A DNA stretch of 64,000 nucleotides from the NCBI GenBank assembly GCA_945861645.1, contig CAMAVZ010000001.1:77606-141605 (forward strand), given 5' to 3'. Below the pieces are notes generated by a model. The model worked only from the letters and a program-made list of their open reading frames with translations. It was not told the origin of the DNA and searched no databases. Shown piece after piece: positions 10,707-50,098 of this stretch; the first letter of the stretch is position 1, and the number at the start of each line of letters is the position of its first letter. The stretch is from Opitutus sp. GAS368. Lineage in GTDB: Bacteria; Verrucomicrobiota; Verrucomicrobiia; Opitutales; Opitutaceae. The translations under genes were made by a program, and so were the position numbers.

Positions 10707-10733
10707 GGCTTCGCGCGTTTTTTTGCCCGCGCT

Positions 10734-12317: not shown

Positions 12318-12377
12318 GGGGCCGTGCTGGTTAAGCTTGGCCAGAAAATTAAACCTGCCGTCGGTCTATTTTAAATT

Positions 12378-12659
12378 ATGCCTATGCCTGAAATTCTGCA
12401 CCATGTCGCGGCGCACCGCTACGCAGTAACCGTTGATGGTCACTGGGCGGTTTGTGACTACCTGCTTACGGACGGGCGGATGATCTTCACGCATACGCTG
12501 GTTCCACCTGAATTGCGGGGGCAGGGTCGGGCGGAGCAACTCGTGCGTCGGGGATTGGCTGATGCCCGTGCGGCTGGTCGCCAAGTCGTGCCCGCTTGCT
12601 CTTACGTGGCAAAATTTATCAAAAGGAATGCGGAATTTCAGGATCTCCTAGCCGGCTAG
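12378..12659 (+). CDS. Small GNAT-family protein (YjdJ-like)
   Basis: FTHTLVPPELRGQGRA...VVPACSYVA. Confidence 0.88.
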   Translation: MPMPEILHHVAAHRYAVTVDGHWAVCDYLLTDGRMIFTHTLVPPELRGQGRAEQLVRRGLADARAAGRQVVPACSYVAKFIKRNAEFQDLLAG

Positions 12660-12726
12660 GATGGAACATATTGTCTCCCGGCAGTTGGTTGTGCGGTCAA
12701 GCGGTGCACGGTTTTGAGTGGGCACA

Positions 12727-12756
12727 AAAAAACCCGCAGCCATGAGCCGCGGGTTG
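12727..12756 (-). terminator. Intrinsic terminator of rpmB
   Basis: Minus strand AACCCGCGGC-TCATG-GCTGCGGG followed by T7. Confidence 0.8.
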
Positions 12757-12771
12757 AAGAGGTGAAGGAGC

Positions 12772-13002
12772 TTAGGCCTTCTGCACGAGTCCGGCCTTGA
12801 TGGCCTTGACTGAGACCCACATGCGTTTGGTGCCACCGTTGGGCAGCTTGATCTTGATCCACTGCAGATTGGGGCGAAACAGCCGCGTCGTCAGGCTGGT
12901 GACGTGCGTGCCGATGCCTCCGCTCTTCTTGGATTGGCCTTTACGGTTAATAATTCTGCCCTTGGTGGGGCGTCTGCCGGTGATTGCGCAAATTCGTGCC
13001 AT
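12772..13002 (-). CDS. rpmB: 50S ribosomal protein L28
   Basis: MARICAITGRR...KSGGIGTHVT...RLFRPNLQ. Confidence 0.95.
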   Translation of the reverse strand: MARICAITGRRPTKGRIINRKGQSKKSGGIGTHVTSLTTRLFRPNLQWIKIKLPNGGTKRMWVSVKAIKAGLVQKA

Positions 13003-13088
13003 GGTGTTGCTTGAGTTAAAGGGTCGGAAGTAAAGGATCGTCCGACCGCTTAGCAAGGGCAATTTTGGTTTTCGGCCCTGGCGCAGCT

Positions 13089-14075
13089 TTATTTACGTAA
13101 AGCATAGAGGGCCTGAAACTTCTGGCCCATGTTGGCGGGGTGCATCAGCTGCATCAGCATGCGCTTTCTCGGACTGAAACTGCTCGTCTCGGTGGTGGTT
13201 ATGTGAGCGAGCACCTTGGCGGCATGGGCCATGAAAAAACTTTCTTGGGAGTCGACGCGAGTTTCCCCGAAACCGGCGCGGACTAGGCCATCTTCGAGCC
13301 AATCCCAGCAAATATGACAGGTGAGATCTTGTTTGCCAGGCCGCGCGAGGAGGTCGTTGCCCATTTTTTGGCGGTGGTAGGTGCGGCCGGTGCCGCTGGG
13401 GAGGTGTTCCGCGAGCTCAGGCCAGAATTTCCCGTAATCGAAGGCGATGAATAGCCCCTTCCAGTTGGGTCCAATGATGCGCTCTAAGATCGGAATAGTG
13501 CGCAGGGGCATATCGATGTGATAATTTTCCTCCGACTGTTTGGGGAGACGGTCGGTGTGGGCCGCGAGTTCAGGGGTTAATTCCGGTAACTCCACTTCCC
13601 GCAAGGTGCGGCCCGCTAAGGCGACGCCTAGCTCGCGCCAGCGCCCTTGGCGCCAGACAACCCGGTGAAAGGGTTGGGCATCGAAGAGTTCATTGGAAAA
13701 AACCACCGCGTTGGGCGGGAGGACAAAGGGCTGGCCGAGGGCAATGATCTGATAACTGCCAAAGGGGTGGGCGAGGTTCCGTAAAATGCCGCCGCCGGGT
13801 TCGGCGCCGATCTCAACAAACACAAAATCTGCCGGCTGGGCGGGGGCCAGCAGCTTAACGACCGCGGCGATCACGAGCTCGCCAAAGATCGGACTAAAGG
13901 TTGTAGAGGTGAAGAAATCCGCTTTGTCATCGCGGCCGACGCGCTTGAAGTTACGGGTGTAATAGCCCGCGGTCGGGTGATACATGGCCAGCTCCATGAA
14001 GCGGGCAAAAGACACGCCAGTGGCCGCCGTTGGCTCAGTAGCAAAGATTTCAAAAAAGTCGGAGGAGGAACCCAT
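13089..14075 (-). CDS. MidA/NDUFAF7-family SAM-dependent methyltransferase
   Basis: FARFMELAMYHP.GYY, DFFTS, VEIGA, SNELFDA, FDYG, PGKQDLTCH; start uncertain (ORF extends to 14117). Confidence 0.88.
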   Translation of the reverse strand: MGSSSDFFEIFATEPTAATGVSFARFMELAMYHPTAGYYTRNFKRVGRDDKADFFTSTTFSPIFGELVIAAVVKLLAPAQPADFVFVEIGAEPGGGILRNLAHPFGSYQIIALGQPFVLPPNAVVFSNELFDAQPFHRVVWRQGRWRELGVALAGRTLREVELPELTPELAAHTDRLPKQSEENYHIDMPLRTIPILERIIGPNWKGLFIAFDYGKFWPELAEHLPSGTGRTYHRQKMGNDLLARPGKQDLTCHICWDWLEDGLVRAGFGETRVDSQESFFMAHAAKVLAHITTTETSSFSPRKRMLMQLMHPANMGQKFQALYALRK

Positions 14076-35497: not shown

Positions 35498-36946
35498 TTA
35501 GGCGAGCAAGCCGGGGAGAACATGGCCGTGCACGTCGGTGAGGCGGAATTGACGGCCTTGATACCGGTAAGTGAGTCGCTCGTGATTAATACCGAGCAGG
35601 TGCAGGATCGTTGCTTGCCAATCGTGAACGTGGACGGGGTCTTTAATGACATTATAGCTGAAATCATCCGTCTCACCGTAGGCGACGCCGGGTTTCACGC
35701 CGCCGCCAATCATCCAGGTGCTGTAGGCCGAACCGAGATGATCACGGCCGTGCCCATCTTTTTTGGTGACGTCGCCTTGGACAAAAACGGTGCGGCCGAA
35801 TTCACCGGCGAAAATAACTAAGGTGTCTTCGAGCAGGCCGCGTTGCTTTAAATCTTGAATGAGCGCCGATGTGGGTTGGTCGGTATCGCGGCATTGAATC
35901 TCCAGTTGCGTGGAGAGGTTGCGGTGTTGATCCCAACCGCCATGCATCAGTTGAATAAAATGCACGCCGCGTTCGGCGAGGCGACAAGCCAGCAGACAGT
36001 TGCGCGCGTAGCTGCCCGCGCGATTTACGTCGGGACCATAACTTGCGAGGGTCGCCGGCGACTCGGTCGTGAGATCCAGCAGGCCAGGCACGCTCGCTTG
36101 CATCTTGAAAGCCATTTCATACTGGGCGATGCGGGTATCCGTTTCCGGATCGCCATGTAAATCGAGCTGATGGTGATTCAGCCCAGCGATGTCATCAAGC
36201 AGCGCTCGCTTCTGGGCGCGATCAAGTCCGGGGGCATCATTTAAGTAGAGGACCGGTTCCCCTTCGCTGCGCAGACGGACGCCTTGAAATTTAGAAGGAA
36301 TAAATCCGCTGCCCCAGTAATGTTCATAGAAAAGTTGGCCGCAGGTTTTCTCGCGGTCGGAGGAGGTCATGACCACAAACGACGGCAAATCTTCGGCCAG
36401 TGAGCCTAGGCCGTAGGTGAGCCAAGAGCCCATACTCGGGCGGCCGGGAATTTGGGAACCCGTGAGACAGAAGGTGACGCCTGGGGCGTGATTGACGGCT
36501 TCAGTCCGCATGGAGCGGATCAGGCAGAGCTCGTCGGCGTGGTTGCCAATATGCGGAATGAGCGAGCTCAGCCAGCGGCCGGATTGGCCGTACTGTTTGA
36601 AAGGTTTGAGCGCCGGGAGAATCGGGAATTTTTTTTGCGTCGACGTCATCGTCGAAAGGCGCGCCCCGCTGCGTACTGATTCTGGTAATTCCTGCAGGCG
36701 GAGGGCCTCTAATCCGGGTTTATAGTCAAAGAGGTCGACTTGGGAAGGACCGCCGCCTTGCCAGAGAAGAATCACGCGCTTCGCTTTCGCTGGAAAATGC
36801 GGCAAGCCGTTACCCGAAGCAGTTAAGGCGGCTAGGGTATTGGGGGTGAGCAGTGAGCTTAGGGCGGCTGCGCCAATGCCAGTGGCGGCGCGGCCAAAAA
36901 ATTGCCGGCGCGTGAGTTGCAGGTGGGCTTCGCTAAGCGGGTTCAT
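35498..36946 (-). CDS. DUF1501-family protein with Tat signal
   Basis: TRRQFF; KAKRVI.L...GGPSQVDLFDYKP; GWDQH; GEFGRT; GRDH; GVAYGETD; RLTDVHG. Confidence 0.92.
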   Translation of the reverse strand: MNPLSEAHLQLTRRQFFGRAATGIGAAALSSLLTPNTLAALTASGNGLPHFPAKAKRVILLWQGGGPSQVDLFDYKPGLEALRLQELPESVRSGARLSTMTSTQKKFPILPALKPFKQYGQSGRWLSSLIPHIGNHADELCLIRSMRTEAVNHAPGVTFCLTGSQIPGRPSMGSWLTYGLGSLAEDLPSFVVMTSSDREKTCGQLFYEHYWGSGFIPSKFQGVRLRSEGEPVLYLNDAPGLDRAQKRALLDDIAGLNHHQLDLHGDPETDTRIAQYEMAFKMQASVPGLLDLTTESPATLASYGPDVNRAGSYARNCLLACRLAERGVHFIQLMHGGWDQHRNLSTQLEIQCRDTDQPTSALIQDLKQRGLLEDTLVIFAGEFGRTVFVQGDVTKKDGHGRDHLGSAYSTWMIGGGVKPGVAYGETDDFSYNVIKDPVHVHDWQATILHLLGINHERLTYRYQGRQFRLTDVHGHVLPGLLA

Positions 36947-39423
36947 GACTTCGTGAGGGTTTCGTCAAGATTGAGGAGTGCGAGGCAGACCGCCGTGTAG
37001 GCGGCGTGTTCGGCCAGCGCGAGAGTCGGGTCGCGGGGAATAGCACCGACGGTCAGAAATTTTTGAGCGGCGGAGGGATCTGCGGTGAAGCGGGACAGTT
37101 GTTTAGCGAGGCTGGCGCGGAGGATTTTCCTTTCGGTCGTATCAGGGTTGCGAGCGAGCACGAGGCGAAAGGCGTGTTCGAGCCGACGATCGCGCGAGGG
37201 AGTTGCCTGCAAGGTCCGGGCCGCCAGCGCGCGCGCCGCTTCAATGAAGGTCGGGTCGTTGAGGGTGGTTAAAGCATGCAATGGGGTGCTCGTGATCGCC
37301 GTGCGCACATTGCACGTATTGCGTGCGGAAGTATCAAACATGTTGGCCGGAGCGACGGTCCGGCGCCAGAAAGTGTAGAGACTGCGCCGATAAAGATCAT
37401 CGCCGGTGGACTGAGGATAAGTGAAGTCGCGCTCCTTCGTGATCGCGAGGGAGTCCCAAATATCGGCGGGCTGATACGGGTAGACGGGCTTGCCGCCCAA
37501 TTTATCAACGAGGAGCCCGCTAGCAGCGAGCGCCTGATCGCGAATCATCATCGCGGGAAGGCGGAGTCGGGCCCCGCGGGCGTAAAGTCGGTTTTCTGGA
37601 TCGCGTTCCAGCAAAGCCGGCGTGACGCGCGATGACTGCCGGTAAGTTGCGCTCGTCACGATGAGGCGGTGGAGATTTTTTGTATTCCAACCGCCTTCGC
37701 GAAATTCTGCAGCTAGCCAGTCGAGCAGAGCCCGATGGACGGGTGCGTCGCTCTGCACGCCAAAATCTTCGCTCGTTTTAACGAGGCCAAGGCCAAAGAA
37801 AGTTTGCCAGTAACGGTTGACGATGACGCGAGCGGTGAGCGGTTGTTCAGAACTGACGAGCCAGCGGGCGAGGCCGAGGCGATTGCGCGGAGCCTCGGCG
37901 GGGAGTGGCGGCAAGAAAGTAGGCGTGGCAAAAGAAACTTTTTCCAAGTGCGCTTCGTAGTTGCCGCGATCGAGGATGAAGGTGTCGCGGACTTGGTTGT
38001 CATCCATCACCATGACGCGCGGATACTCATCAGTTTTTAGGCGATTGAGTTCACTGAGGAGGTGATCGATCTCGGGGTTGAGGACGGGGAGAACTTGCTT
38101 AAAAAAGTAGCGGCGCAGATCGCCGGCCGGAAGTTCGAGCCGCTCCTTGGCGGGTAGGGCGGCGGTTGCGCGCAGCACGGGATCCGGAAATTTTTCATCG
38201 CCGGCGATTTTGGCTTCCCAGTCCGAACGAATTTTTGCGATGAGCTCACTCGATTTCATTGCGGCGAGCTTCGCTTCGAGCGCGGCGAGTTGGGCCTTGT
38301 GCTCGGGGGTCGCGAGATCGAGCACGGGGGCCGCGGTGCGGACTTTGGCCGTGGATCCATTGACGATGCCATTTTCCGAGACGTGATTAAAACCGGCGAG
38401 CAAGGAGTAATAATCGCGTTGAGTGACAGGGTCAAATTTGTGGTCGTGGCATTGAGCGCAAGCGACGGTGAGGCCCAGCCAATTGGTGGCGGTGGTATCG
38501 ACGCGGTCGAAGAGAGTGACGTAACGCTGCTCCTCGGGGATGGCGCCGCCTTCGCCGTTGAGGAGATGGTTGCGATTAAACGCGGTCGCGATGCGTTGCT
38601 CGGTGGTAGGCGTGGGGAGGAGGTCGCCGGCGAGTTGTTCGATCGTAAATTGATCGAAGGGTTGATTCGTGTTGAGGGCCTGGACTACCCAGTCGCGCCA
38701 AATCCATTGGAAGGTATCGCCGTCTTGTTGATAGCCGTTGGAATCAGCATAGCGGGCGGCATCCAGCCAAGGCAGCGCCATGCGTTCGCCATAATGCGGG
38801 GAGGCCAGCAGGCGATCGACTAGTCGCTCGTAGGCGTTGGGCGATTTATCGCCGAGAAAATCTTCGAGTTCGGTGGGCGTCGGCGGGAGACCCGTCAGAT
38901 CGAGGAACACGCGCCGAATGAGGGTGGCGCGCGGTGCTTCGGGACTGGGGGTGATTTGTTCAATTTCGAGTCGAGCCAGCACGAAGCGATCGATCGGATT
39001 ATGCACCCATTTTTCTCGGCGAACGGGTGGCGGGGTGGGGCGGGTAATGGCGGTAAAGGCCCAATGGGGAGTGTAGGGAGCGCCCTCGGCGACCCAGCGT
39101 TTCAGCAGGGCTTTCTGCGCGAGCGTGAGGGCGCGGTGGGAATTAGCGGGCGGCATCTGCTCGTCATCCAGCGTGGAAAAGATGCGCGTGATGAGGTCGC
39201 TGTCATCAGGTTGATGCGGAATAATTACCTCATGGCTCAGTTGGCCCTCGCGGGTGTCGAGGCGCAGTTTGGCTTTACGCTTGGTGGCATCCTGACCGTG
39301 ACAGTAAAAACAATTTTCGGCCAAAATAGGCCGAACATCTTGGGCATAGTCCACGGGTGGCGGGGTCGGGATCGCGAAAGCGGTTCCGAGGGTAGCCAAG
39401 TAGGGGAGGATTTTTTTCAACAT
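36943..39423 (-). CDS. Planctomycete cytochrome c / DUF1549 / DUF1553 (PSCyt1-PSCyt2-PSD1) protein
   Basis: VRPILAENCFYCHG, HWAF, NPIDRF, YGERMA..WLD.ARYADS, CAQCHDHKFDP, NRLGLARWL, RRSLY; start uncertain (ORF extends to 39453). Confidence 0.92.
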   Translation of the reverse strand: MLKKILPYLATLGTAFAIPTPPPVDYAQDVRPILAENCFYCHGQDATKRKAKLRLDTREGQLSHEVIIPHQPDDSDLITRIFSTLDDEQMPPANSHRALTLAQKALLKRWVAEGAPYTPHWAFTAITRPTPPPVRREKWVHNPIDRFVLARLEIEQITPSPEAPRATLIRRVFLDLTGLPPTPTELEDFLGDKSPNAYERLVDRLLASPHYGERMALPWLDAARYADSNGYQQDGDTFQWIWRDWVVQALNTNQPFDQFTIEQLAGDLLPTPTTEQRIATAFNRNHLLNGEGGAIPEEQRYVTLFDRVDTTATNWLGLTVACAQCHDHKFDPVTQRDYYSLLAGFNHVSENGIVNGSTAKVRTAAPVLDLATPEHKAQLAALEAKLAAMKSSELIAKIRSDWEAKIAGDEKFPDPVLRATAALPAKERLELPAGDLRRYFFKQVLPVLNPEIDHLLSELNRLKTDEYPRVMVMDDNQVRDTFILDRGNYEAHLEKVSFATPTFLPPLPAEAPRNRLGLARWLVSSEQPLTARVIVNRYWQTFFGLGLVKTSEDFGVQSDAPVHRALLDWLAAEFREGGWNTKNLHRLIVTSATYRQSSRVTPALLERDPENRLYARGARLRLPAMMIRDQALAASGLLVDKLGGKPVYPYQPADIWDSLAITKERDFTYPQSTGDDLYRRSLYTFWRRTVAPANMFDTSARNTCNVRTAITSTPLHALTTLNDPTFIEAARALAARTLQATPSRDRRLEHAFRLVLARNPDTTERKILRASLAKQLSRFTADPSAAQKFLTVGAIPRDPTLALAEHAAYTAVCLALLNLDETLTKS

Positions 39424-39800
39424 GCTTAGCATGACGCCGCGCATCGGGCGCAAAAGTATTAGCGGTGGGCGAAAGGAGTACGAATCAGATTCAACGACGG
39501 ATGATCAACGAAAACAATTATCAAAAAATAAGCAGGGCGTTGAATCAGCAGGCAAGGGGTAAAGCGGTGATGTCGCTCCTCGCTGGCGGTTTATTTATGA
39601 ATGAAAAATCATTTGGCCAGTTAATCGCGGCTCGACTGCATTAGACCTCAACCCCCAATAGAAACTCGGAGGAGGCGGAGCACTAAGCGCGGGAATCAGG
39701 TGGGCTCGCGCCAGCATACCATCGCCGGCTAATTTAAACTGCGTTCATTTATTGACGTAGGTTTTAGTTAGATATCACAGTGCTACGGTTAGTTTACCCC

Positions 39801-40514
39801 ATGACCCCGATCGTCCAAATATCGTTAGATCTCACTAACCTCGAAGAAGCCCTCGCTACCGCGACTACGGCACGGCGGGCGGGAGTTGATTGGTTAGAGG
39901 CAGGAACGCCGCTCATTTTAGCCGAGGGATTGCATGGCGTTCGGGCCTTGCGCGAGCGCTTCCCTGGGGTGCCGATTATTGCTGATCTAAAAACCATGGA
40001 CGGCGGCTACCTTGAAGCTGAAATGATGGCCAAGGCCGGCGCGACTCATGTGGTCGTGATGGCGCAAGCGCATCCTGAAACCATAAAAATTGTGGTAAAG
40101 GCTGGTCGTGATTACGGCATCAAAGTCATGGGGGACAATTTGGGTTGTCCCGATATGGTGGCGGGAGCGCGAGAGCTAGAAGATCTCGGCTGTGATTACG
40201 TCATTCATCACATTGGCTATGATGAACGCCGTGGCATCGTCGCGGCTGGCGGGAAAATGCCGAGTCCGCTCGATCAGTTGCGGGCAGTGGTCGCCGCCGT
40301 GAGTGTGCCCGTGCAGGCGGTTGGGGGGCTGACGTTGGAGCAAGCCGTGCGCACTCCTTCATATGGTGCACCGCTCGTGGTCATCGGGGCGCCGCTGGCG
40401 GTTGATGCCGATGCTTTTCGCACCGCCGATGGTAATTTAGAGGGCACCCTAAAAATTATTTGCGACCGCGTGCATGCGTATGGCGATATACCGATCATTA
40501 ATAAAAAGAAATGA
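39801..40514 (+). CDS. 3-hexulose-6-phosphate synthase-like protein (OMPDC/HUMPS superfamily)
   Basis: QISLD, EAGTPL, ADLKTMDGG, MGDNL, HIGYD (HPS-type rather than the KGPDC HRSRD). Confidence 0.82.
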   Translation: MTPIVQISLDLTNLEEALATATTARRAGVDWLEAGTPLILAEGLHGVRALRERFPGVPIIADLKTMDGGYLEAEMMAKAGATHVVVMAQAHPETIKIVVKAGRDYGIKVMGDNLGCPDMVAGARELEDLGCDYVIHHIGYDERRGIVAAGGKMPSPLDQLRAVVAAVSVPVQAVGGLTLEQAVRTPSYGAPLVVIGAPLAVDADAFRTADGNLEGTLKIICDRVHAYGDIPIINKKK

Positions 40515-40516
40515 AC

Positions 40517-41548
40517 ATGAAAAGCCTGGCCGTAGTTAATTATTCATCGACGCCGCACAGCGTTGAGCTGCGCGAATTTTCAAAACCAGAACCGGGTCCA
40601 GAGGATATTATCATGGCCGTTGAGGCCGTGGGGGTTTGTGGCAGTGATCTGCACCAATGGACCGGTTCGCATAGCTGGAAGGTTAATTATCCGGTGGTGC
40701 TCGGGCATGAGTTCGGGGGGCAAATTGCTGCCGTCGGCTCCGCCTTGAAAGGATGGCAAGAGGGCGACCGCGTGGTCAGCGAAACGGCGGCGGTCATTGA
40801 CGCTAACAATCCGCTGAGTCGCGCCGGTAAGTATAATTTAGATCCCACCAGAAAAGGATTTGGCTACGGCGTAGATGGGGCGATGACCCGTTACGTGCGC
40901 GTGCCGGCTCGTTGCTTGCACCGGGTGCCGGCGGGGTTGGCCATCGAGCACGCGGCGCTCACAGAGCCGTGTTGTGTCGCTTATAATGCGGTGCTGCATA
41001 ATGCACGCATCCTGCCCGGTGATCGGGTCATTGTTTTGGGGCCCGGTCCGATTGGGATTTTATGTGCGGCGATGGCGCGGCTCGCTGGAGCGGAAGTAGC
41101 CTTGGTGGGGTTGGAGCGCGATCGTCACCGGCTCGATATTGCGAAGGCCTATGGTTGCACCACTTTGATGGGCAACGAAGAGGCCGTGGCTTGGGCCTTG
41201 GCGCGCGATGGTCTCGGGGTGGACGGCGTGGTTGATGCCGCCGGCGCCTCGGCCGCTTTAAAATTAGCGCTCGATCTCGTGCGGCCGGCGGGGTGGATCA
41301 GTAAAGTGGGTTGGGGCCCGCAGCCTTTGGGCTTTTCGCTCGATCCCCTCGTGCAAAAAAATATCACCCTCCAAGGTAGCTTCAGTCATAATTGGCCGAT
41401 GTGGGAGCGGGTACTCGCTTTGCTGGCTTCCGGCCAACTCGATGTGCGCCCAATTTTAGGTGGCATCTGGCCGTTGACTGGTTGGCACGAGGCTTTTGAA
41501 AAAATGCATACGGGCGCGATTGTGAAAGCGGTGCTCAAACCGAGCTAA
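40517..41548 (+). CDS. Zinc-dependent (MDR) sugar/polyol dehydrogenase
   Basis: GVCGSDLH, LGHEFGG, LTEP, GPGPIG; lacks the four-Cys structural zinc loop. Confidence 0.88.
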   Translation: MKSLAVVNYSSTPHSVELREFSKPEPGPEDIIMAVEAVGVCGSDLHQWTGSHSWKVNYPVVLGHEFGGQIAAVGSALKGWQEGDRVVSETAAVIDANNPLSRAGKYNLDPTRKGFGYGVDGAMTRYVRVPARCLHRVPAGLAIEHAALTEPCCVAYNAVLHNARILPGDRVIVLGPGPIGILCAAMARLAGAEVALVGLERDRHRLDIAKAYGCTTLMGNEEAVAWALARDGLGVDGVVDAAGASAALKLALDLVRPAGWISKVGWGPQPLGFSLDPLVQKNITLQGSFSHNWPMWERVLALLASGQLDVRPILGGIWPLTGWHEAFEKMHTGAIVKAVLKPS

Positions 41549-41560
41549 CCCTAGGCTATC

Positions 41561-42331
41561 GTGCGCTTAAAAGATAAAGTCATTATTGTTACGGGGAGCA
41601 CATCGGGCATCGGCCAAGCGATTGTCGAGCGAGCGGTGGCCGAAGGGGCGCGGGTGCTCATTCATGGGATCGATCAAGCTGCGGGAGAAAAACTCGCCCT
41701 CACTTTAGGAAGTGCCGCAAAATTTCACTGGGCTGATCTGCTGGATCCGGCGAGTCCGGCCCGAATTATTGCGGCGGCCGTGCAAGCCTTTGGTCGGATT
41801 GATGCGTTGGTTAATAATGCAGCTATCGTGGTACGGAGCACGCTGGCGACCGCGACCCTGCCCGCTTTTGAACGGACGATCGCGATCAATTTAAGGGCGC
41901 CCTATTTTCTCATTCAGGCGGCTTTCCCGTACCTCAAGGCGACTGAGGGGTGCGTGTTGAATATCGGCTCGATTAACGCGCATAGCGGAGAGTCGACGCT
42001 ATTGGATTACAGTGTTTCCAAGGGTGGGTTGCAGACTTTATCCCGCAATCTGGCCAACGCTCACGGCGTCGATCGGGTGCGGGTGAATCATCTAAACGTG
42101 GGCTGGGTTTTAACCGCGCGAGAATATGCGGATCAGCAGCGTTATGGCTTACCGGCCGATTGGCCCGAGACGCTACCGGCAGTTTTTGCGCCGTCGGGTC
42201 GTTTGCTGTTGCCGGCAGATATTGCGGCGGCCGCGATTTACTGGCTGGGGGACGAATCACGCCCTGTGACGGGTTCTGTGGTCGAGCTGGAGCAATTTTC
42301 CGTAATCGGTCGCAACGCCGTTAAGGTATAA
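41561..42331 (+). CDS. Short-chain dehydrogenase/reductase
   Basis: TGSTSGIG, NNAA, YSVSK. Confidence 0.92.
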   Translation: MRLKDKVIIVTGSTSGIGQAIVERAVAEGARVLIHGIDQAAGEKLALTLGSAAKFHWADLLDPASPARIIAAAVQAFGRIDALVNNAAIVVRSTLATATLPAFERTIAINLRAPYFLIQAAFPYLKATEGCVLNIGSINAHSGESTLLDYSVSKGGLQTLSRNLANAHGVDRVRVNHLNVGWVLTAREYADQQRYGLPADWPETLPAVFAPSGRLLLPADIAAAAIYWLGDESRPVTGSVVELEQFSVIGRNAVKV

Positions 42332-42335
42332 ATTT

Positions 42336-43235
42336 ATGCCCAAACTCGCCGCCTTCCCCAAGGCGTTCATGCAGCCTTTATGCCGCGAAGGCACCATGAC
42401 GCTCCAAGCTTGGATCGATTTAGCCGCCCCGCTGGGGTTGGATGGACTCGAATACTACAGTGGCTTTCTGGAATTAGCCGATCCCGCGCAGTGGCCGGCC
42501 GCCCGACGCGCCGTCGAGGCGAGTGGACTCGTGATTCCGATGCTGTGTTGTTCGCCTGATTTTTCCCATCCCGACCTCGCTTTCCGCCAAGCGGAAATTG
42601 CCAAAGAAAAAAATTGGATCCGCATGGCGGCTACGCTGGGAGCCAAATTTTGCCGAGTGCTTTCGGGGCAGCGGCGGCCGGAATTAACTCGGGAGCGCGG
42701 CTTGGAACTGGTGGCGCAGAGCATTGAAGCCTGCTTGCCGGAGGCCGAGGCCTGTGGGGTAACCTTGGTGATCGAAAATCATTATAAGGATGATTTTTGG
42801 ACTTACCCCGAGTTTGCGCAAAAAATGGATGTCTTCTGTGAGCTCGTAGATAAAATTCACCATCCGTGCTTTGGGGTTAATTATGATCCGAGCAATGCCT
42901 TCTTGGCGGGTGATGATCCCCTCGAGTTGCTGCGTCGCGTTAAGCACCGCGTGCTTACGATGCACGCGAGTGATCGATTCTTAATCGAAGGGACGCTGGC
43001 TGATTTGCAGAAAGAGGAAGCGGGGGTGGCGGGCTATGCGCGCCGCTTGCGCCACGGCACGATTGGTAAAGGTCTCAATGATTATGATACTATTTTTCGT
43101 GAATTAAAGCGCGTTGGTTTTGATAGCTGGATTAGCATCGAAGATGGCGTCGATGGCATGGACCAACTCGTTGAGAGTATAAAATTTATCCGACAAAAAA
43201 TGGCCCAAACCTGGCCCGAGCCGCGCGAGGGTTAA
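42336..43235 (+). CDS. Sugar phosphate isomerase/epimerase (xylose isomerase-like TIM barrel)
   Basis: GLDGLE, IENH, YDPSN, MHASD, G.G..DY, SIED. Confidence 0.85.
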   Translation: MPKLAAFPKAFMQPLCREGTMTLQAWIDLAAPLGLDGLEYYSGFLELADPAQWPAARRAVEASGLVIPMLCCSPDFSHPDLAFRQAEIAKEKNWIRMAATLGAKFCRVLSGQRRPELTRERGLELVAQSIEACLPEAEACGVTLVIENHYKDDFWTYPEFAQKMDVFCELVDKIHHPCFGVNYDPSNAFLAGDDPLELLRRVKHRVLTMHASDRFLIEGTLADLQKEEAGVAGYARRLRHGTIGKGLNDYDTIFRELKRVGFDSWISIEDGVDGMDQLVESIKFIRQKMAQTWPEPREG

Positions 43236-43284
43236 TTAACTTCGCCGGCGGTGCTCTGGTTTGAGTCCAAACGGTGCGCCCTGC

Positions 43285-44625
43285 TCAGCGCACCAAGCAC
43301 GGCCGTTTGGGATCAAATTTCCACCCCGGCAACAGGTATTGCATGGCGATCGTGTCGTCGCGCGCTCCGCCGCCGATCCGGCGATAAAGCTCATGGGCTT
43401 GCGCTAATTGCGCGAAATCAATTTCGAGCCCTAGTCCGGGGCGAGTAGGGACGGTGATTTTGCCCTGGTGAATGACGAGGGGCTCACGCGTGAGTCGTTG
43501 GCCATCTTGCCAAATCCAGTGGGTGTCGATGGCGGTGACACGTCCTGGGGCCGCGGCGGCGACGTGCGTGAACATCGCGAGGGAGATATCAAAATGATTA
43601 TTGGAATGAGAGCCCCAGGTGAGCCCGCGTTCCTGACAAAGCTGCGCGACGCGAACGGAGCCTTGCATGGTCCAAAAATGCGGATCGGCGAGCGGAATAT
43701 CGATCGCCTGCAAGGCCAGCGCTTCAGCCAACTCTCGCCAGTCGGTCGCGATCATATTGGTCGCGGTTGGCAGACCGGTCGCCCGCCGAAACTCGGCCAT
43801 ACTTTCGCAGCCGGTTAATCCCGGTTCTGCCCCGCAGGGATCCTCCGCATAGGCGAGGATCCGCTGTTGACCGGTGCAAAGACGCACCGCCTCCTCGAGC
43901 GACCAAGCGCCATTGGGATCGAGCGTAATCCGCGCTTGCGGGAAGCGCTCGGCTAAAGCGGTGACCGCTTCGATTTCCTCCGCGCCGTGGCGGACCCCGC
44001 CTTTTAGTTTAAAATCGTTAAACCCATAGCGGGCTTGGGCCGCTTCAGCTAAGCGCACAATGTCGGCCGAACTAAGGGCGGCTTCATGCCGTCGCCGGCC
44101 CCAGTCATCGGGCGCGCTGGGCTCACTCGGATAAGCGAGGTCAGTTTTTCCGCGATCACCAATGTAGAAAAGATACCCGAGTACCTCAATCGACTGGCGC
44201 TGCTGGCCGGCGCCAAGCAAGGCGGCCACGGGCAACTGACAAAATTGTCCGTAGAGATCCAGCATCGCCGCTTCGATCGCCGTCATCGCATGAATTGTCG
44301 TACGCTGATCAAAAGTTTGCAGACCCCGCCCGCCCGCATCGCGATCACCAAAACGCCGGCGCACGGTCTCAATGACTGCCGCACTTGCACTGATCGGCTG
44401 GCCGATGACCAGTTCGCTGGCCTCCTCGAGGGTTTGGCGAATTTTTTCTCCGCCGGGCACTTCGCCGGCCCCAGTGCCGCCGGCGCTATCAGTCAGGATT
44501 AAAATGTTGCGGGTAAAATAAGGCCCGTGCGCGCCACTTAAATTGAGCAACATGCTGTCATGTCCCGCGACTGGCACCACCCGCATCGTGGTTATTTTTG
44601 GGGCAGTGCGGTCGTCCGAAATCAT
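43285..44625 (-). CDS. gudD: Glucarate dehydratase (enolase superfamily)
   Basis: [56 protein letters not shown]. Confidence 0.93.
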
Positions 44626-44657
44626 GATGCAAGCAAGCGGCTGGAGTGCGCGCTGAC

Positions 44658-45995
44658 TTAGAGCGACTTAAGCTCGAGGCGCTTGATCTCTCCCACAATA
44701 AAGAGGTAGCTCACGACTGCGAGGGCGGCGTGGGCGCTAACGTAGACCAGCGCCCAATTGAAGGAGCCCGTGGCTTTCAAGATATAACCAATCGCAATTG
44801 GGGTGATAATTCCCGCGGTATTCCCGAAGGTATTAAATAAACCGCCGCACAAGCCCGTGACCGACTTCGGCGAGGTGTCGGCAATTACCGCCCAGCCGAG
44901 TGAGCCCAAGCCCTTGCCGAAAAAGGCCAAGCTCATGAGTGCGATGACGGCCCACGAGGTGCTCACATAATTACAGGCCACCATGCTGACGGACAGCAAT
45001 AGTCCCGCCACAATGGGGAGCTTTCGAGCCAGCGTGAGTGGATGGCCGCGGCGAATTAGCCAATCCGAGAACCAGCCCCCGAGAATGCCGCCACCAAAGC
45101 CGCACAGGGCAGGCAGCGTGGCGACAAAACCTGCTTGTAGAATGGATAAGCCCCGCTCCTTCACGAGATAGATGGGGAACCAAGTGAGGAAAAACCAGGT
45201 GATGGTGGTGATGCAATATTGGCTGAGATAAATGCCCAACAGCATGCGATTGCGCAGTAATTCACCCAGCACCGCCCAGCGAATGCCACTCTGTTTGGTT
45301 GGTTTAGCCGCCGATTCGAGGTCGATGAGTCCGCCGCCGCGTTCGATGTAGGTGAGCTCTGCTTGATTCACGCGGGGATGTTCGCGCGGTGGGTAAACCA
45401 ATTTGGGCCAAGCCAGCGCGAATATTATGCCGATGCTACCCATGAACCAAAAAACATATTCCCAACCCCAGCGATGGGCGATCCAGCCCATGATGGGAGT
45501 AAATAGCACGGTCGCAAAATATTGAGCTGAATTAAAAATAGCCGAAGCTTGGCCGCGCTCCGCCGTGGGAAACCAGCTGGCCACGATTCGCGCATTCGCC
45601 GGAAAGGAGGGGGCTTCGGCGGCGCCCAGTAAAAAACGCAGACCAAACAAAACCATCACCGCCACTTTGCCATCAAGCCCACCGACGCAGCCCTGCAGCA
45701 AAGTGAACAAGGACCACAGCCCAATGCTCCAACCATAGACTTTCCTTGAACCGACTCGATCGAGGAGCCAACCGCCCGGAATTTGCGCGATGACATAGGA
45801 CCAGGCAAAAGCTGAAAAAAGATAGCCCATCGCGACCGCATCGAGTCCGAGTTGCTTCGATACCGCCGTTCCCACGATCGAGAGCGTCGCGCGATCAGCG
45901 TAGTTGATTGAGGTCAGTAAAAACAGAATCAACACGATCTCATACCGCACTCGGGTGCGTGGGGCGGCGGCGGCGGAATCAAGTGGCAGGCTCAT
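44658..45995 (-). CDS. gudP: Glucarate/galactarate MFS (ACS) transporter
   Basis: [49 protein letters not shown]. Confidence 0.88.
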
Positions 45996-46907
45996 TTATT
46001 GTGAACCTAAACCTTGTATTAAAGCGGCGAGCTGGGCGGATTCGGCGGCGGTTAAATCAACTAAAGGCGGTCGCACTGGTCCGGCGTCGTGGCCGACAAT
46101 CCGCGCGCCCGCTTTAATGATGCTCACCGCATAGCCGGGCATCCGATTGCGGATAGCTAAAAATGGGAGGAAAAATTGGTCCAGCAGTCGTCCCATCGTG
46201 ACGTGATCATCCGTCGAGACGGCCCGATAAAAATCCATCGCAGTTTTGGGAATGAAATTAAATACTGCCGAGGAATACACTGGCACGCCGAGCGCTTTGT
46301 AGGCCGCTGCATAAACTTCGGCCGTGGGCAAACCGCCGAGATAAGCGAAACGATCACCGAGTTTACGTCGAATCGTTACCATGAGCTCAATCTCGCCCAA
46401 GCCATCCTTGAAGCCGATTAAATTGGGGCAGCGCTCCGCCAAGCGGACCAAGGTGTCCGCCTGCAGTCGGCACGCCCCGCGGTTGTAAATAATGACACCT
46501 AATTTAACGGAGCGACACACGGCTTCGACATGAGCCGCCAAGCCCTCTTGCCCCGCTTCGGTCAAATAGTGGGGCAGTAACAGGATTCCCTGCGCACCTA
46601 GCTGTTCGGCTTCTTGCGCAAAAGCCATGGCCTGACGCGTCGGTCCTCCCGCTCCGGCAATAATCGGCACCCGCGGGTGGCACGTTTTGACGGCAGTACC
46701 GACCACGGCGCGATAATCAGCCGTAGTTAAGGAAAAAAATTCCCCCGTACCGCCGGCCGCAAAAAGCACGGTCGCGCCATACGGCATGAGCCACTCTAAC
46801 CGTCGGGTATAAGTCTCCGCGCAAAAATCGCCCGCGGCATCAAAGTCCGTGATGGGAAAAGACAGCAATCCGGCGGCCATCGTTTTTTTCAATTCAGCAG
46901 GATTCAT
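45996..46907 (-). CDS. kdgD: 5-dehydro-4-deoxyglucarate dehydratase
   Basis: [47 protein letters not shown]. Confidence 0.93.
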
Positions 46908-46969: not shown

Positions 46970-47854
46970 TTATTTTTTCTTGGGACTTGGCTTGGGGTCA
47001 AGATTCGCGGCCAGTTGGGCCGCGGTGACGCTAGACACCACGCCCGTCTGGGGCACTTCGACTTGCGCGATCCAGAGTAATGCATTCAGCACAACTTTGC
47101 GCTGATTGTCGTTCCCCCAATTGAGATGCGTATGGCCGCCCGTGAAGCCAAAGCCGCGGCCCCCATGGGGTCGGTCATAGACCCACATCATGGTTTCCGC
47201 CCGCCCCTCGGCTTGGATGATATGGGCATAAGGTCCCTTGGGTGAAACGTAGGGGCCGCCCCGCACAGTCGTCGAGGGCTGGGCGGTCAGGATCGGCGTG
47301 AGGCCTTGCGAATTTTCGGGCCAGCGCAGGTTGAAATACCATTCATCGCGGTTGCTGAAAGGTTGGACCCCGCGGGCGACGGGATGGTCGGGGAAATGCT
47401 GATAATCAGGCGACCACATGGGATTACAGGAATAGTTCGTTTCGTAGTAGCCGCCGATCCATTGCAGAAATTCTGGCCCGCCATTTTTTGCCGGGATCTC
47501 GACGCCGTAGTGCATGAAGCCGAGGCCGACGCCTTTTTGTGCGAGGGCACGGAGAATCTCGCGGCGATCAGCTTGAATGGCGGGATGCTTATCGCCGCCG
47601 TCGCAGTAAAGCACCACCGCATCCGCGCCGTCGAAGGCGTCGGGCGCCTCCGGCCAGCCATTGCGATGCACCGTTGTTTTTACGCCCGGAGTATTGGCCA
47701 AGCATTGTTGCAAGAGCAGCAGACCGGCATGAAATTCATGCATGCCAGGCGGATGGCTAGGCTTACCGGCAATGAGCACGATGTGTTTATCCGCGGCGGG
47801 GAGCAGCCCAGTCGGCAGGAGGATGGCCGCGAGGAGAAACAGTAGATTCTTCAT
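46970..47854 (-). CDS. Secreted ThuA-like (class I glutamine amidotransferase-like fold) protein
   Basis: Signal peptide; AGKPSH...HE, HPVARGV.PF...DEWY, GGRGFGFTGGH. Confidence 0.82.
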   Translation of the reverse strand: MKNLLFLLAAILLPTGLLPAADKHIVLIAGKPSHPPGMHEFHAGLLLLQQCLANTPGVKTTVHRNGWPEAPDAFDGADAVVLYCDGGDKHPAIQADRREILRALAQKGVGLGFMHYGVEIPAKNGGPEFLQWIGGYYETNYSCNPMWSPDYQHFPDHPVARGVQPFSNRDEWYFNLRWPENSQGLTPILTAQPSTTVRGGPYVSPKGPYAHIIQAEGRAETMMWVYDRPHGGRGFGFTGGHTHLNWGNDNQRKVVLNALLWIAQVEVPQTGVVSSVTAAQLAANLDPKPSPKKK

Positions 47855-47901
47855 GGGGTTAGTCGTAAAATTACCGTAGGCTCGCCGGTCGCCTTCGAGA
47901 T

Positions 47902-48837
47902 CTACCTGGAAGCAGCGGCAGGCATAGGACTCGCCGGTTTGGGGCTTGGGGTGAACGGTTGATTGATCATCGCGCGAGGGGCGACCTGCCGTAAATTCGG
48001 ACTCATGTTAGTGGCGGGGGCATCACCGAGGGCCCACTTGAGGCCGCCGGTCAAAATTTGCTGAAAGATAGTATTAGTCCAGATGTCCTCGCGGTGGCCC
48101 ATCGCGGTGTACCAGACGCGCCCTTGGCCTTCATAGCGGGCCCAAGTATTGGGAAAAGGGGGCCGTTGGTAATCATCGCCCTCGAGGGCGGGATCATTGA
48201 AGACGGTGAGCACATGCAGATCAGCGGCGAAATCTTTCAGTGAATACCACTCCTCCATTAAACTATATTCAGTCCCCACATTTTCAAAGCCGGGGAAGCT
48301 GGGATCGATGACTTGATTGCGGCCGACTTGCTGTTTGCCGTGGCGAATGAATTCCGCCCCGATAAAATGGACATAAGCATCCGCCTGCGCCCCATGATTA
48401 GCAAAACGATCGGGCCCTTTGCCGGCCTCATTGCCCGTGTGAAAGGTGTCGGTCGCGGAGTGCGTACCGACAAAGCCTTTGCCGCTGCGCACAAAATCAA
48501 AAAGCGCTTGCTTGCCGGCGAGGGACATCGGCGGGTTTTTATCAGTGCCTTCCGCGCAAAGATCGCCCGTGGTGTAAAACATCACGGCGTCAAATTGCGC
48601 CAAGTAAGTGGGGGAAAATTTGGAACCATTTTTAGAGAAAACAAATTCCCAATTGTTCGCTGCGCCCAGGGCGAGCAGTTGCTTTTCCGCAAAACTGGGC
48701 GAGCCGTCTTTGTAAGAGATTACGGCATGCTCGTAGCCGGATGATTTAGTGAAAAAAAGAATTTTGCGCGCCGGATGATTCGCGGCGAAACAAGCAGCGG
48801 CGTAGGTGGCGACGAGCAGGCAGAGCAGTGAGCGCAT
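47902..48837 (-). CDS. Secreted ThuA-domain protein
   Basis: Signal peptide; LFFTKSSGYEH, GKGFVGTHSATDT, EEWY, GRVWYTAMGH. Confidence 0.87.
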   Translation of the reverse strand: MRSLLCLLVATYAAACFAANHPARKILFFTKSSGYEHAVISYKDGSPSFAEKQLLALGAANNWEFVFSKNGSKFSPTYLAQFDAVMFYTTGDLCAEGTDKNPPMSLAGKQALFDFVRSGKGFVGTHSATDTFHTGNEAGKGPDRFANHGAQADAYVHFIGAEFIRHGKQQVGRNQVIDPSFPGFENVGTEYSLMEEWYSLKDFAADLHVLTVFNDPALEGDDYQRPPFPNTWARYEGQGRVWYTAMGHREDIWTNTIFQQILTGGLKWALGDAPATNMSPNLRQVAPRAMINQPFTPSPKPASPMPAAASR

Positions 48838-48889
48838 GGGTAGGGGGGATTAATAAAAAAGAGGCTAATTTCTCAGCGTCGTGATCGCG

Positions 48890-49930
48890 TTAATTTTTGG
48901 CCCCGCCGGCATGAGGGGTGGAGGGTGCATGATCGTGCGCATAATGCTCGGCTAACATATCGCGGGCGAAATCGCCGGTAAAATTGCGCCACACGGTATG
49001 AATATGATTGGCGTTGTTTTGCGTGTTGTCGAATTCGATGACGAAGGTCTTGCCCTGGATGCGATAGTAGTGTCCGGCCCGGCGGTCGAGTACTCCGGCC
49101 CAAGCGAAATGGATGCCATCAAGATCGGCGGTGGCGAGTGCGGGGGCGGCGATTGCTGTTCGGTAACGATCAAAATAAAGCTGGAGTAAGGCGCGGAGTT
49201 GTTGGCGTTGAGTGGGGGTCAGGGCCGTGGCTGCCAGACCGAGGGGAGCCAGGGGCTCGACGCGCACTCGGTTGCCAGTCGCGATGTCATGCGGGGCGGT
49301 GGCGGCGATCACGGCGCTCGCTCGCTGGGTCGCATCAAGCGAATTGACGAATTCTAGGGCCAGATCCTCTTCGGCTGCTAGCACACGCGTACCGAGTTGT
49401 GGGCCCGTGCGGACTTCAGCCGGATTGGTGCCAAAAAATGAGGGGGTGACGACGATATGCTCAGCATCAGGGATCGTGAAATTGAGCGACAGATGATGGC
49501 CTTCAAAGCGCCAACCCCAGGGCGGGTGCCCGGGGTCGCTAAAAAGTGTCACATAGTAAAGAGTCGGATCGCGGCGAAGGGGATCATGCTCCATCTCGCG
49601 GAGTACATTTTCGAGGGTGATAATCGTCTCCGCCTGCAGCGATCCGCGCTGACTTAGACCGGAACGCAAGAGGGTGTGCGCGAGTTCTTGCTGGGCAAGG
49701 GTCATGTCTTTGAGCGGTAAACCGAGCCGTTTGGCAGGCACAAAAGACCAGTGCGTGCGCTCAGGGGCCGTGAGGGGAAAGATGGTGCGCGTTCGTTGCG
49801 CTGGGTCGAGGGCGGTCAGAAAATTCTGGGCAGCCGTGGCCATCGCGCTGCTCGCGTCGTGTCCACGCAGAGCAATGACCGTTGATAGCATCGCGCCAAT
49901 AGCGAGGCCGCGGTGGAGGGTAAGGCGCAT
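48890..49930 (-). CDS. DUF3500-family secreted protein
   Basis: Signal peptide; AA..FL..L, ER..W.FVP, WGWRFEGHHLSLNF, IEFDNTQ..ANHIHTVWR. Confidence 0.85.
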   Translation of the reverse strand: MRLTLHRGLAIGAMLSTVIALRGHDASSAMATAAQNFLTALDPAQRTRTIFPLTAPERTHWSFVPAKRLGLPLKDMTLAQQELAHTLLRSGLSQRGSLQAETIITLENVLREMEHDPLRRDPTLYYVTLFSDPGHPPWGWRFEGHHLSLNFTIPDAEHIVVTPSFFGTNPAEVRTGPQLGTRVLAAEEDLALEFVNSLDATQRASAVIAATAPHDIATGNRVRVEPLAPLGLAATALTPTQRQQLRALLQLYFDRYRTAIAAPALATADLDGIHFAWAGVLDRRAGHYYRIQGKTFVIEFDNTQNNANHIHTVWRNFTGDFARDMLAEHYAHDHAPSTPHAGGAKN

Positions 49931-50098
49931 GGAGCGAGATTCCTGAAAGCTGACTCGGCGGCAAGGGAGGAAATACCGCCAGGCCAGGCCTCCTTTAGCA
50001 TTTATTACATGGGGCGGGCGCACGGCTTGGGGCGTTTAGCTGAGGCGCGCCTTGCTATTGCGCATCAAGAAAAACCAACTCTGAGATCGGTGCCCCGC

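Follow-up and report, generated by a model that had tools for sequence, protein, structure and literature searches.

Hexulose-6-phosphate synthase (HPS; HxlA), known from the ribulose monophosphate (RuMP) pathway together with HxlB, and 3-keto-L-gulonate-6-phosphate decarboxylase (KGPDC; UlaD and SgbH in E. coli) both act beside a 3-keto group via an Mg-bound enediolate, and KGPDC and 6-phosphogluconate dehydrogenase (6PGD) both lose CO2 from a 3-keto-aldonate. Here we describe an HPS-like gene that opens a module of four tightly packed genes in a 64,000-nucleotide (nt) stretch of contig CAMAVZ010000001.1 from Opitutus sp. GAS368 (assembly GCA_945861645.1). This whole stretch is referred to as the window, all coordinates are those of the window, and the module spans 39801-43235 on the + strand. 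The other three genes encode a Zn-dependent medium-chain dehydrogenase/reductase (MDR), a short-chain dehydrogenase/reductase (SDR) and a xylose-isomerase-like triosephosphate isomerase (TIM) barrel. We tentatively propose, with somewhat less than even confidence, that the four genes form a cytoplasmic sugar-catabolic module in which a hexose-level sugar or sugar acid is converted into a 3-keto compound, from which C1 is then removed.

The HPS-like protein shares with HxlA the PF00215 fold, the Mg ligands, the Lys/Asp motif, Asp112 and the H-x-G-x-D motif, but it falls under the HxlA cut-off and has an insertion of its own, a C-terminal extension and a GAP loop. Its partners are the MDR, the SDR and the TIM barrel, and HxlB was found over its cut-off in none of 11 genomes carrying the module (hereafter carriers). 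In E. coli, UlaD/SgbH and the L-xylulose-5-phosphate 3-epimerases UlaE/SgbU have the same two folds as the HPS-like protein and the TIM barrel, there acting sequentially on a 3-keto sugar acid and then on a pentulose, whereas in the module Glu112, Arg139 and Thr169 are replaced, no kinase or phosphotransferase system (PTS) is linked, AraD is over cut-off in 0/5 carriers and two extra dehydrogenases are present. According to PMC12337341, the animal glucuronate-xylulose pathway (CRYL1, C11orf54/BKGD, DCXR, SORD, XYLB) also combines an SDR with a sorbitol-dehydrogenase-type Zn-MDR, after a free 3-keto-aldonate has lost CO2 to become a pentulose; the human decarboxylase C11orf54 belongs to another fold family. 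A CRYL1-type dehydrogenase is not part of the module, which has a TIM barrel in addition.

Systems that act on 3-keto-glycosides, built from a Gfo/Idh/MocA 3-dehydrogenase with DUF1080 and TIM-barrel lyases/hydratases or exemplified by YcjQRS of E. coli, differ from the module in having no HPS/KGPDC homologue. They resemble it in that genes for Gfo/Idh/MocA proteins with a twin-arginine translocation (TAT) signal and for DUF1080 proteins are operonic with the module in some loci (L124 and L169), and in that the model of the TIM barrel is structurally similar to AtHYD, YcjR and AL1. By its RefSeq annotation, YcjQ of E. coli YcjQRS is a precedent for a Zn-MDR acting as a sugar 3-dehydrogenase. 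YcjQ and YcjR were rejected as close relatives, as YcjQ showed 27% identity over the C-terminal half of the MDR and YcjR showed no significant similarity. In the gut system, reduction presumably returns 3-keto-glucose to glucose (bioRxiv 10.1101/2024.03.25.586180). The net chemistry that we propose, i.e., oxidation of an aldonate at C3 and loss of C1 as CO2 to leave a 2-pentulose, would be that of 6PGD, except that the module would split the half-reactions between the MDR and a protein with the fold of orotidine-5′-monophosphate decarboxylase (OMPDC); the enzymes are unrelated. No description of the gene set was found in open-access full text, subscription papers and supplements being outside that search; the module is a widespread, conserved and uncharacterised combination of familiar folds that is probably mis-annotated.

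Gene content and the four proteins

A first-pass annotation, made from the DNA letters and their open reading frames (ORFs), had described four packed, co-oriented genes encoding an HPS-like protein, a Zn-MDR, an SDR and a TIM barrel, and both the ORF list and the Pfam domains agree with this:

39801..40514, + strand: HPS/KGPDC-like barrel of the OMPDC suprafamily, 237 aa, PF00215
40511..41548, + strand: Zn-dependent MDR of the threonine/sorbitol dehydrogenase type, 345 aa, PF08240 and PF00107
41561..42331, + strand: classical SDR, 256 aa, PF00106/PF13561
42336..43235, + strand: xylose-isomerase-like TIM barrel, 299 aa, PF01261

The ORF list gives the same limits for the last three genes, while the first ORF (39780..40514) opens at a GTG at 39780 and contains an in-frame ATG at 39801, from which the protein would start with MTPIVQISLDL. 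The HPS-like and MDR genes overlap by 4 bp, and gaps of 12 and 4 bp separate the MDR from the SDR and the SDR from the TIM-barrel gene. None of the four proteins reached the cut-off of a curated NCBIfam model. An Rfam scan of 39300-43400 gave nothing at E<=1, and a promoter and terminator scan gave no signal exceeding shuffled controls. The source genome is an Opitutaceae-like metagenome-assembled genome from lake water/freshwater (2.30 Mb in 116 contigs, 84% complete).

The HPS-like protein was identified as a member of the OMPDC suprafamily (PF00215, 85.6 bits; gathering score 27). Against the HxlA model TIGR03128 it scored 142.1 bits, under the cut-off of 200, whereas two canonical HxlA proteins of Bacteroidota used as controls scored 248.2 and 259 bits; with the KGPDC models NF009831 and NF009832 it reached 64.8 (cut-off 294) and 79.6 bits (cut-off 250). 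The nearest solved chain was the HPS domain of 9lj9 (155.9 bits), a fusion of HPS with 6-phospho-3-hexuloisomerase (PHI), on which no relevant paper turned up in the literature searches (PDB 9LJ9). Compared with 9lj9, 3f4w, 3ajx and the two canonical HxlA proteins, the HPS-type catalytic residues are present (the Mg ligands, D-x-K-x-x-D, Asp112 and the His of H-x-G-x-D), and they are invariant in 28 members of the subfamily. The motifs D-x-K-x-x-D, E-GTP and H-x-G-x-D are common to the HPS-like protein and the solved HPS chains. Glu112, Arg139 and Thr169 are what we take to be the KGPDC signature, the positions being backed by the PDB titles of E112D/R139V/T169A mutants. Alignment to the E. 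coli and V. cholerae KGPDC chains showed them to be replaced by Asp112, Tyr140 and Val174, which bears out the earlier assignment of HPS-type rather than KGPDC residues.

The subfamily departs from canonical HxlA in three features: an insertion that follows GYDER, about 25 additional residues at the C-terminus, and GAPL in place of G(G/A)AI. The GG and GAP loops, phosphate-binding in relatives, are invariant in the 28 members. Foldseek searches with the structure model (pLDDT 88) gave HPS, KGPDC and OMPDC chains as top matches, the closest being the HPS domain of the bifunctional HPS/PHI protein, followed by KGPDC and HPS chains. The HPS-like enzyme is proposed to catalyse an Mg2+-dependent cleavage of the C1-C2 bond beside a 3-keto group.

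The MDR contains ADH_N and ADH_zinc_N domains and is of the Zn-dependent polyol/threonine dehydrogenase type, with the catalytic Zn ligands C43, H66, E67 and E152 invariant in 28 sequences. Absence of the structural Zn loop had been suggested before, and the alignment indeed shows no Cys in the lobe where threonine dehydrogenase has four. Threonine dehydrogenase (184.5 bits, cut-off 380) and IolM (170.1 bits, cut-off 450) were the best NCBIfam models, and threonine dehydrogenase (156.9 bits) and human sorbitol dehydrogenase (139.7 bits) were matched in PDB. A predicted complex of the MDR with the HPS-like protein gave an ipSAE of 0.00, a value that counts neither for nor against binding.

Of the four proteins, the SDR varies most (44-72% identity to relatives). 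It scored 237.3 bits against PRK06198, just under the cut-off of 240, 174.6 against a glucose 1-dehydrogenase subfamily (cut-off 215), and 126 and 120 bits against the D-xylose and L-fucose 1-dehydrogenase models. The TIM barrel (PF01261, 137.7 bits) was below the cut-offs of the IolO, IolE, hydroxypyruvate isomerase and UlaE-type equivalogs and reached at most about 35 bits on any named enzyme (IolO 35.3, cut-off 300; UlaE-type 18.6, cut-off 200). Its residues E147, D184, H210 and E269, which by analogy we assume to form the metal site, are invariant in 23 sequences. The nearest structure to the model (pLDDT 90) was the Art22 isomerase (Z 31.9), on which the literature searches turned up no relevant paper; ketose 3-epimerases, IolE/IolI, the 2-hydroxy-3-keto-glucal hydratase AtHYD (Z 26.0), the 3-keto-glucoside 4-epimerase YcjR (Z 25.0) and UlaE (Z 22.6) followed, with Z 22-32 across structures of the PF01261 family. 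A common fold does not fix the reaction; by analogy, we propose that the TIM barrel epimerises, isomerises or hydrates a keto-sugar in a metal-dependent manner.

Conservation, partner genes and distribution

The operon had been called an orphan in the first-pass annotation, which did not hold: in a scan of one genome per species, at least 474 relatives of the HPS-like protein were present among the 598 pattern-matching stretches listed. The best 80 loci belong to Verrucomicrobiota, Bacteroidota and Planctomycetota, and their HPS-like proteins share 76-89% identity with that of the window. These loci and six more diverged ones from the Bacteroidota phylum made up a set of 86, in which gene order was counted for the 66 with at least 4.5 kb after the start of the HPS-like gene (abbreviated HPSl in gene orders). 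The order HPSl-MDR-SDR-TIM was found in 52/66 loci and the MDR adjoins the HPS-like gene in 62/66; thus, the four genes are conserved together, the lack of which would have refuted the first-pass interpretation. Five loci have HPSl-MDR-SDR, one of them (L040) with a diverged TIM-barrel gene missed by the threshold, and the remainder have HPSl-MDR (3), HPSl-MDR-TIM (2), HPSl-SDR (1) or the HPS-like gene alone (3). Among 80 metagenome contigs, 30 had enough sequence on both sides. Here the canonical order was found in 13 and HPSl-MDR-TIM-SDR in 5, besides HPSl-MDR-TIM (2), HPSl-MDR (2), TIM-HPSl (1), MDR-HPSl-TIM (1) and the HPS-like gene alone (6).

Further permutations were TIM-SDR-HPSl-MDR (L096) and SDR-MDR-HPSl-TIM (L103). 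Fusions of about 500 aa with the TIM barrel at the N-terminal and the HPS-like domain at the C-terminal side were found in at least 10 clusters at 90% identity, from several sources, and single proteins represent an MDR-HPSl fusion (P0137, Bacillus sp. N9, 563 aa) and an HPSl-MDR fusion (P0123, 571 aa). The permuted orders and the fusions speak for a direct cooperation of the HPS-like protein with the MDR as well as with the TIM barrel. In L041 from Verrucomicrobiales about 4 kb (10222-14001) separates the MDR from the SDR, the intervening ORFs, which do not enter the Pfam tally given below, resembling phosphate ABC-transporter genes by eye; the HPSl-MDR and SDR-TIM halves are evidently separable. 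In Opitutaceae, an ORF of about 150 aa that by eye resembles the OsmC/Ohr family lies between the MDR and the SDR (L008:9894-10358 and L012:2812-3228), and similar gaps were seen in L005, L007 and L017.

Genome-wide searches were made for the partners of the described pathways. HxlB (TIGR03127, cut-off 160) was over cut-off in 0/11 carriers; the best score was 46.6 bits, matches being SIS-domain proteins of other sizes, and in the window's genome, which is 84% complete, the best score was 22.7 bits. As positive controls, two Bacteroidota genomes with an HPS match of 35-37% identity had hxlB directly adjacent (226.4 and 226.9 bits), next to the two hxlA genes that scored 248.2 and 259 bits above. 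As HxlB was under cut-off in all 11 carriers, the module is not a canonical RuMP pair; a canonical hxlB encoded elsewhere in these genomes, which would also have refuted the first-pass interpretation, was not found.

A RuMP variant independent of PHI, in which formaldehyde and ribulose 5-phosphate are condensed and the TIM barrel substitutes for the 6-phospho-3-hexuloisomerase, the dehydrogenases oxidising the product further or supplying the aldehyde, was considered with detoxification in aerobic degraders of methylated polysaccharides as its role. It would account for the HPS-type catalytic signature, the HPS domain as closest solved relative and the invariant anion-binding loops; the TIM-HPSl fusions would parallel the known HPS-PHI fusions, and a core without conserved transporter, regulator or kinase would be expected if a central metabolite and formaldehyde are the substrates. 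For canonical hxlAB, PMC9400963 documents that polysaccharide degraders undergo formaldehyde stress. This variant is unlikely, however, given the TIGR03128 score well below those of true HxlA proteins, the two dehydrogenases left without a role, and the recurrent neighbours described below, which are carbohydrate enzymes (DUF1080, cytoplasmic lactonase, major facilitator superfamily (MFS) transporters and TAT-signal oxidoreductases) and include no C1 enzyme.

AraD was over cut-off in 0/5 carriers, with no match in the window's genome, and two complete Opitutaceae genomes gave only weak matches to class II aldolases or none; a route via L-ribulose-5-phosphate 4-epimerase is therefore unsupported. 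XylB was over cut-off in 3/5 carriers, whereas the 84% complete genome of the window contained no FGGY/XylB-type kinase at E<=1e-10. The first-pass annotation had noted that HxlB, kinase and 4-epimerase partners are absent from the window, and none was over threshold in the window's 84% complete genome, PTS genes not being part of that search. These results bear on a phosphorylated route similar to Ula/Sgb, in which the HPS-like protein decarboxylates a 3-keto-aldonate 6-phosphate made by the dehydrogenases and the TIM barrel epimerises the resulting pentulose 5-phosphate, with kinase and 4-epimerase encoded elsewhere. E. coli pairs KGPDC with a PF01261 epimerase in this manner, UlaE and KGPDC chains are among the structural neighbours of the module proteins, and the phosphate-type loops are invariant. 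Nevertheless, the KGPDC models are far under their cut-offs, the signature residues are missing, AraD is under its cut-off and class II aldolase matches are weak or absent as stated, and no kinase or PTS is among the 25 commonest families of 148 neighbouring genes, and we consider this route distinctly unlikely. Replacement by the module of a missing oxidative pentose-phosphate pathway was rejected, as 6PGD was present in 5/5 carriers tested and zwf in 4/5, the window's own genome included; carriers thus have the module on top of these ordinary genes, not in their stead.

Within sampled genomes the module was found in 4 of 300 other Verrucomicrobiota (3/26 in the window's family and 0/4 in its genus), in 15 of 401 of the Bacteroidota phylum as intact copies at >=63% identity, plus one fragmentary copy, and in 11 of 301 Planctomycetota at >=73% identity, plus six at 61-66%, the centre genome being counted in the latter two samples. 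Its distribution is patchy. Cultured carriers include Cyclobacterium, Larkinella, Spirosoma and Algoriphagus. A maximum-likelihood tree of the HPS-like protein and the MDR (73 rows) placed Bacteroidota in one group and Opitutaceae in another, with four other Verrucomicrobiota rows and one Planctomycetaceae row beside Bacteroidota and short branches between phyla. This sequence-based pattern fits a few transfers between phyla, followed by spread and loss, while falling short of proof.

More distant HPS-like genes (59-60% identity) were also seen in Planctomycetota (L094:9238-10149 and L097:8731-9618), without the three partner genes and adjoining a regulator of the AraC family. Furthermore, about 110 of the 301 Planctomycetota genomes have an HPS domain of 38-49% identity at the start of frames of about 430-500 aa (e.g., G820:C19:22877-23479 and G994:C77:13784-14407), resembling the HPS/PHI architecture of 9lj9.

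RNA contigs from four lake/freshwater libraries covered parts of all four module genes and bridged gene junctions. One contig starts at 39798, another crosses the HPSl/MDR junction, and a contig of 1,233 nt from a relative with about 97% identity contains the 3′ end of the MDR gene, the whole SDR gene and the start of the TIM-barrel gene. This fits expression of the module in situ; a single transcript is not provable from contigs, DNA carry-over is possible, and the uncovered flanks carry no weight.

Neighbouring genes in the window and in related loci

Genes flanking the module in the window were found to be the following:

35498-39453, - strand, upstream and divergent: a PSCyt1/PSCyt2/PSD1 protein (836 aa), then a DUF1501 protein (482 aa)
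43285-46907, - strand, convergent to the module: a D-glucarate set
46970-50023, - strand, beyond the glucarate set: two ThuA-like genes and a DUF3500 gene (Pfam)

In the glucarate set, the D-galactonate/acid-sugar MFS transporter (457.8 bits) and the 5-dehydro-4-deoxyglucarate dehydratase (459.6 bits) were over their NCBIfam cut-offs, and the glucarate dehydratase reached 794 bits against a cut-off of 828.7. The ThuA-like and DUF3500 proteins matched no NCBIfam family. By eye, the N-termini of the ThuA-like proteins are hydrophobic and signal-peptide-like, and the corresponding stretch of the DUF3500 protein is further in. L051 and L126 likewise have a DUF1501 gene immediately upstream of their HPS-like gene.

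A Pfam tally across loci comprised 148 immediate neighbours in 139 families, of which the 25 commonest were listed. As longest-ORF gene calls are unreliable in high-GC loci, neighbours were called with a filter on GC content at third codon positions (GC3); related loci are not independent. The commonest neighbours were DUF1080, annotated as '3-keto-disaccharide hydrolase' (12 of 148), SMP-30 lactonase (7), MFS (5), Gfo/Idh/MocA (5), AIR-synthase-like genes (5, reflecting synteny in Opitutaceae) and myo-inositol oxygenase (3). Carrier genomes of 5.4-7 Mb contain 20-27 DUF1080 matches, so that less than one would be expected by chance among 148 neighbours. No kinase or PTS family was among the 25 commonest, genome-wide PTS searches not having been made, and the 80 loci have no linked transporter, regulator or kinase in common. 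All-vs-all clustering of neighbouring ORFs at >=30% identity gave none common to more than 8/80 loci; this clustering missed divergent DUF1080 genes, which were recovered by tblastn and Pfam.

By tblastn, DUF1080 was found nearby in 20 of 171 loci, SMP-30 in 17, TAT-type Gfo/Idh/MocA in 15 and myo-inositol oxygenase in 3. DUF1080 proteins are described as 3-keto-glucoside 1,2-lyases/hydratases that yield 3-keto-glucose (bioRxiv 10.1101/2024.03.25.586180). The DUF1080 gene is directly upstream and co-directional in L021, L023, L062 and eight metagenome loci. In L086, L087 and L089 it separates the MDR from the SDR, and elsewhere it is downstream or divergent. In L124, a single co-directional row contains two TAT-signal Gfo/Idh/MocA genes, a DUF1080 gene with a Sec signal, the HPS-like gene, the MDR, a Sec-signal metallophosphoesterase, the TIM barrel and the SDR, and the arrangement in L169 is similar. 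The SMP-30 gene is co-directional and just after the module in 13 of 17 loci, as in L149 (HPSl-MDR-TIM-SDR-MFS-SMP-30), where the lactonase has no signal peptide. A cytoplasmic lactonase would imply that sugar C1 is oxidised to a lactone in the cytoplasm, with the SDR as a plausible agent.

The myo-inositol oxygenase genes are downstream and convergent, in loci of the Chitinophagales type (L039:5437-6318, L052:11868-12746 and L055:11469-12356). They would suit a bacterial version of the animal glucuronate-xylulose pathway, in which free 3-dehydro-L-gulonate, derived from the breakdown of glucuronate, myo-inositol, gulonolactone or ascorbate, is decarboxylated to L-xylulose by the HPS-like protein, reduced to xylitol by the SDR and oxidised to D-xylulose by the MDR. 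Three steps of the human route described in PMC12337341 use enzymes of matching type (a decarboxylase, the SDR DCXR and the Zn-MDR SORD), the MDR is close to human sorbitol dehydrogenase, SMP-30 is nearby in the 17 loci mentioned, glucarate genes adjoin the module in the window, and XylB is over cut-off in three of the five carriers. Set against this are the convergent orientation of the myo-inositol oxygenase genes and their presence in 3/171 loci only, no gene of the L-gulonate 3-dehydrogenase type seen, the TIM barrel without a role, the DUF1080 and TAT-signal oxidoreductase genes left unexplained, and no XylB match in the window's genome at its 84% completeness. Such a counterpart seems quite improbable.

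The neighbours also bear on a biosynthetic role, in which the HPS-like protein would couple a ketose (or ketose phosphate) with some aldehyde that is not formaldehyde, and its three partners would tailor the product into a specialised sugar or polyol. The aldolase-type signature, the self-contained module in variable surroundings and the high identity of the HPS-like protein across three phyla in the best 80 loci would be in line with it. Yet glycosyltransferases, nucleotidyltransferases and phosphatases show no consistent linkage, and the linked genes are catabolic in type (periplasmic oxidoreductases, lyase, lactonase and transporter), which makes this role very improbable.

Proposed function and significance

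For the cytoplasmic catabolic module that we prefer, the following sequence of steps may be envisaged. The SDR would oxidise C1 of the sugar to give a lactone, which would be opened to the aldonate by SMP-30 lactonase where this is encoded, or otherwise spontaneously. The Zn-MDR would then make or handle the 3-keto group, and the TIM barrel would epimerise or isomerise the keto-sugar. The HPS-like enzyme would hold the enediolate on Mg2+ while C1-C2 is cleaved, in the likeliest case converting a 3-keto-aldonate into a 2-pentulose and CO2. A possible input is free 3-keto-hexose from periplasmic oxidation of glycosides at C3 and the action of DUF1080 lyases. The first-pass annotation had suggested formation of a 3-ulose followed by loss of C1 (by retro-aldol cleavage or decarboxylation) instead of ordinary formaldehyde fixation, and this suggestion fits the recurrent neighbours.

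Several points weigh against this proposal. As judged from the sequence, the HPS-type active site, with Asp112 and without Arg139 and Thr169, would favour aldol chemistry over decarboxylation. In KGPDC, such substitutions shift the activity towards that of an aldolase, so that a retro-aldol reaction, or an aldol reaction with an aldehyde, may take place instead. The invariant GG and GAP loops suggest a substrate with an anionic tail, yet no kinase is linked. Analogy is the basis of the roles given to the MDR and the TIM barrel, which are thus provisional. DUF1080, lactonase and Gfo/Idh/MocA genes accompany only the minority of the 171 loci counted above, and in the window neither these nor MFS genes are beside the module: its actual neighbours are the opposite-strand glucarate genes, and the nearest DUF1080 match is at the left edge of the window, about 40 kb away.

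A more specific form of the proposal, which we regard as doubtful, is that the module is a cytoplasmic sink for free 3-keto-hexoses in aerobic Bacteroidota and the Planctomycetota-Verrucomicrobiota-Chlamydiota (PVC) group, with an HPS homologue acting on a non-phosphorylated substrate. C1 would then leave as CO2 from a 3-keto-aldonate or as formate from a hydrated 3-keto-aldose, and the net result would be an ATP-free 'oxidative pentose shunt' that delivers pentulose. Where periplasmic 3-dehydrogenases feed respiration in aerobes, the free 3-keto-hexose would need such a sink. PMC9007349 describes what becomes of 3-ketogalactose as unknown.

The HPS-like gene usually carries the wrong label of a formaldehyde-fixing enzyme, and surveys that count it as RuMP formaldehyde assimilation would overstate the C1 potential of Verrucomicrobiota, Bacteroidota and Planctomycetota. 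If the proposal is true, a new reaction and a new partner set would be added to the well-studied OMPDC suprafamily, and the natural TIM-HPSl and MDR-HPSl fusions would guide its biochemistry. For the question of what becomes of 3-keto-monosaccharides, the module is a concrete candidate, and the cultured carriers make this hypothesis directly testable.

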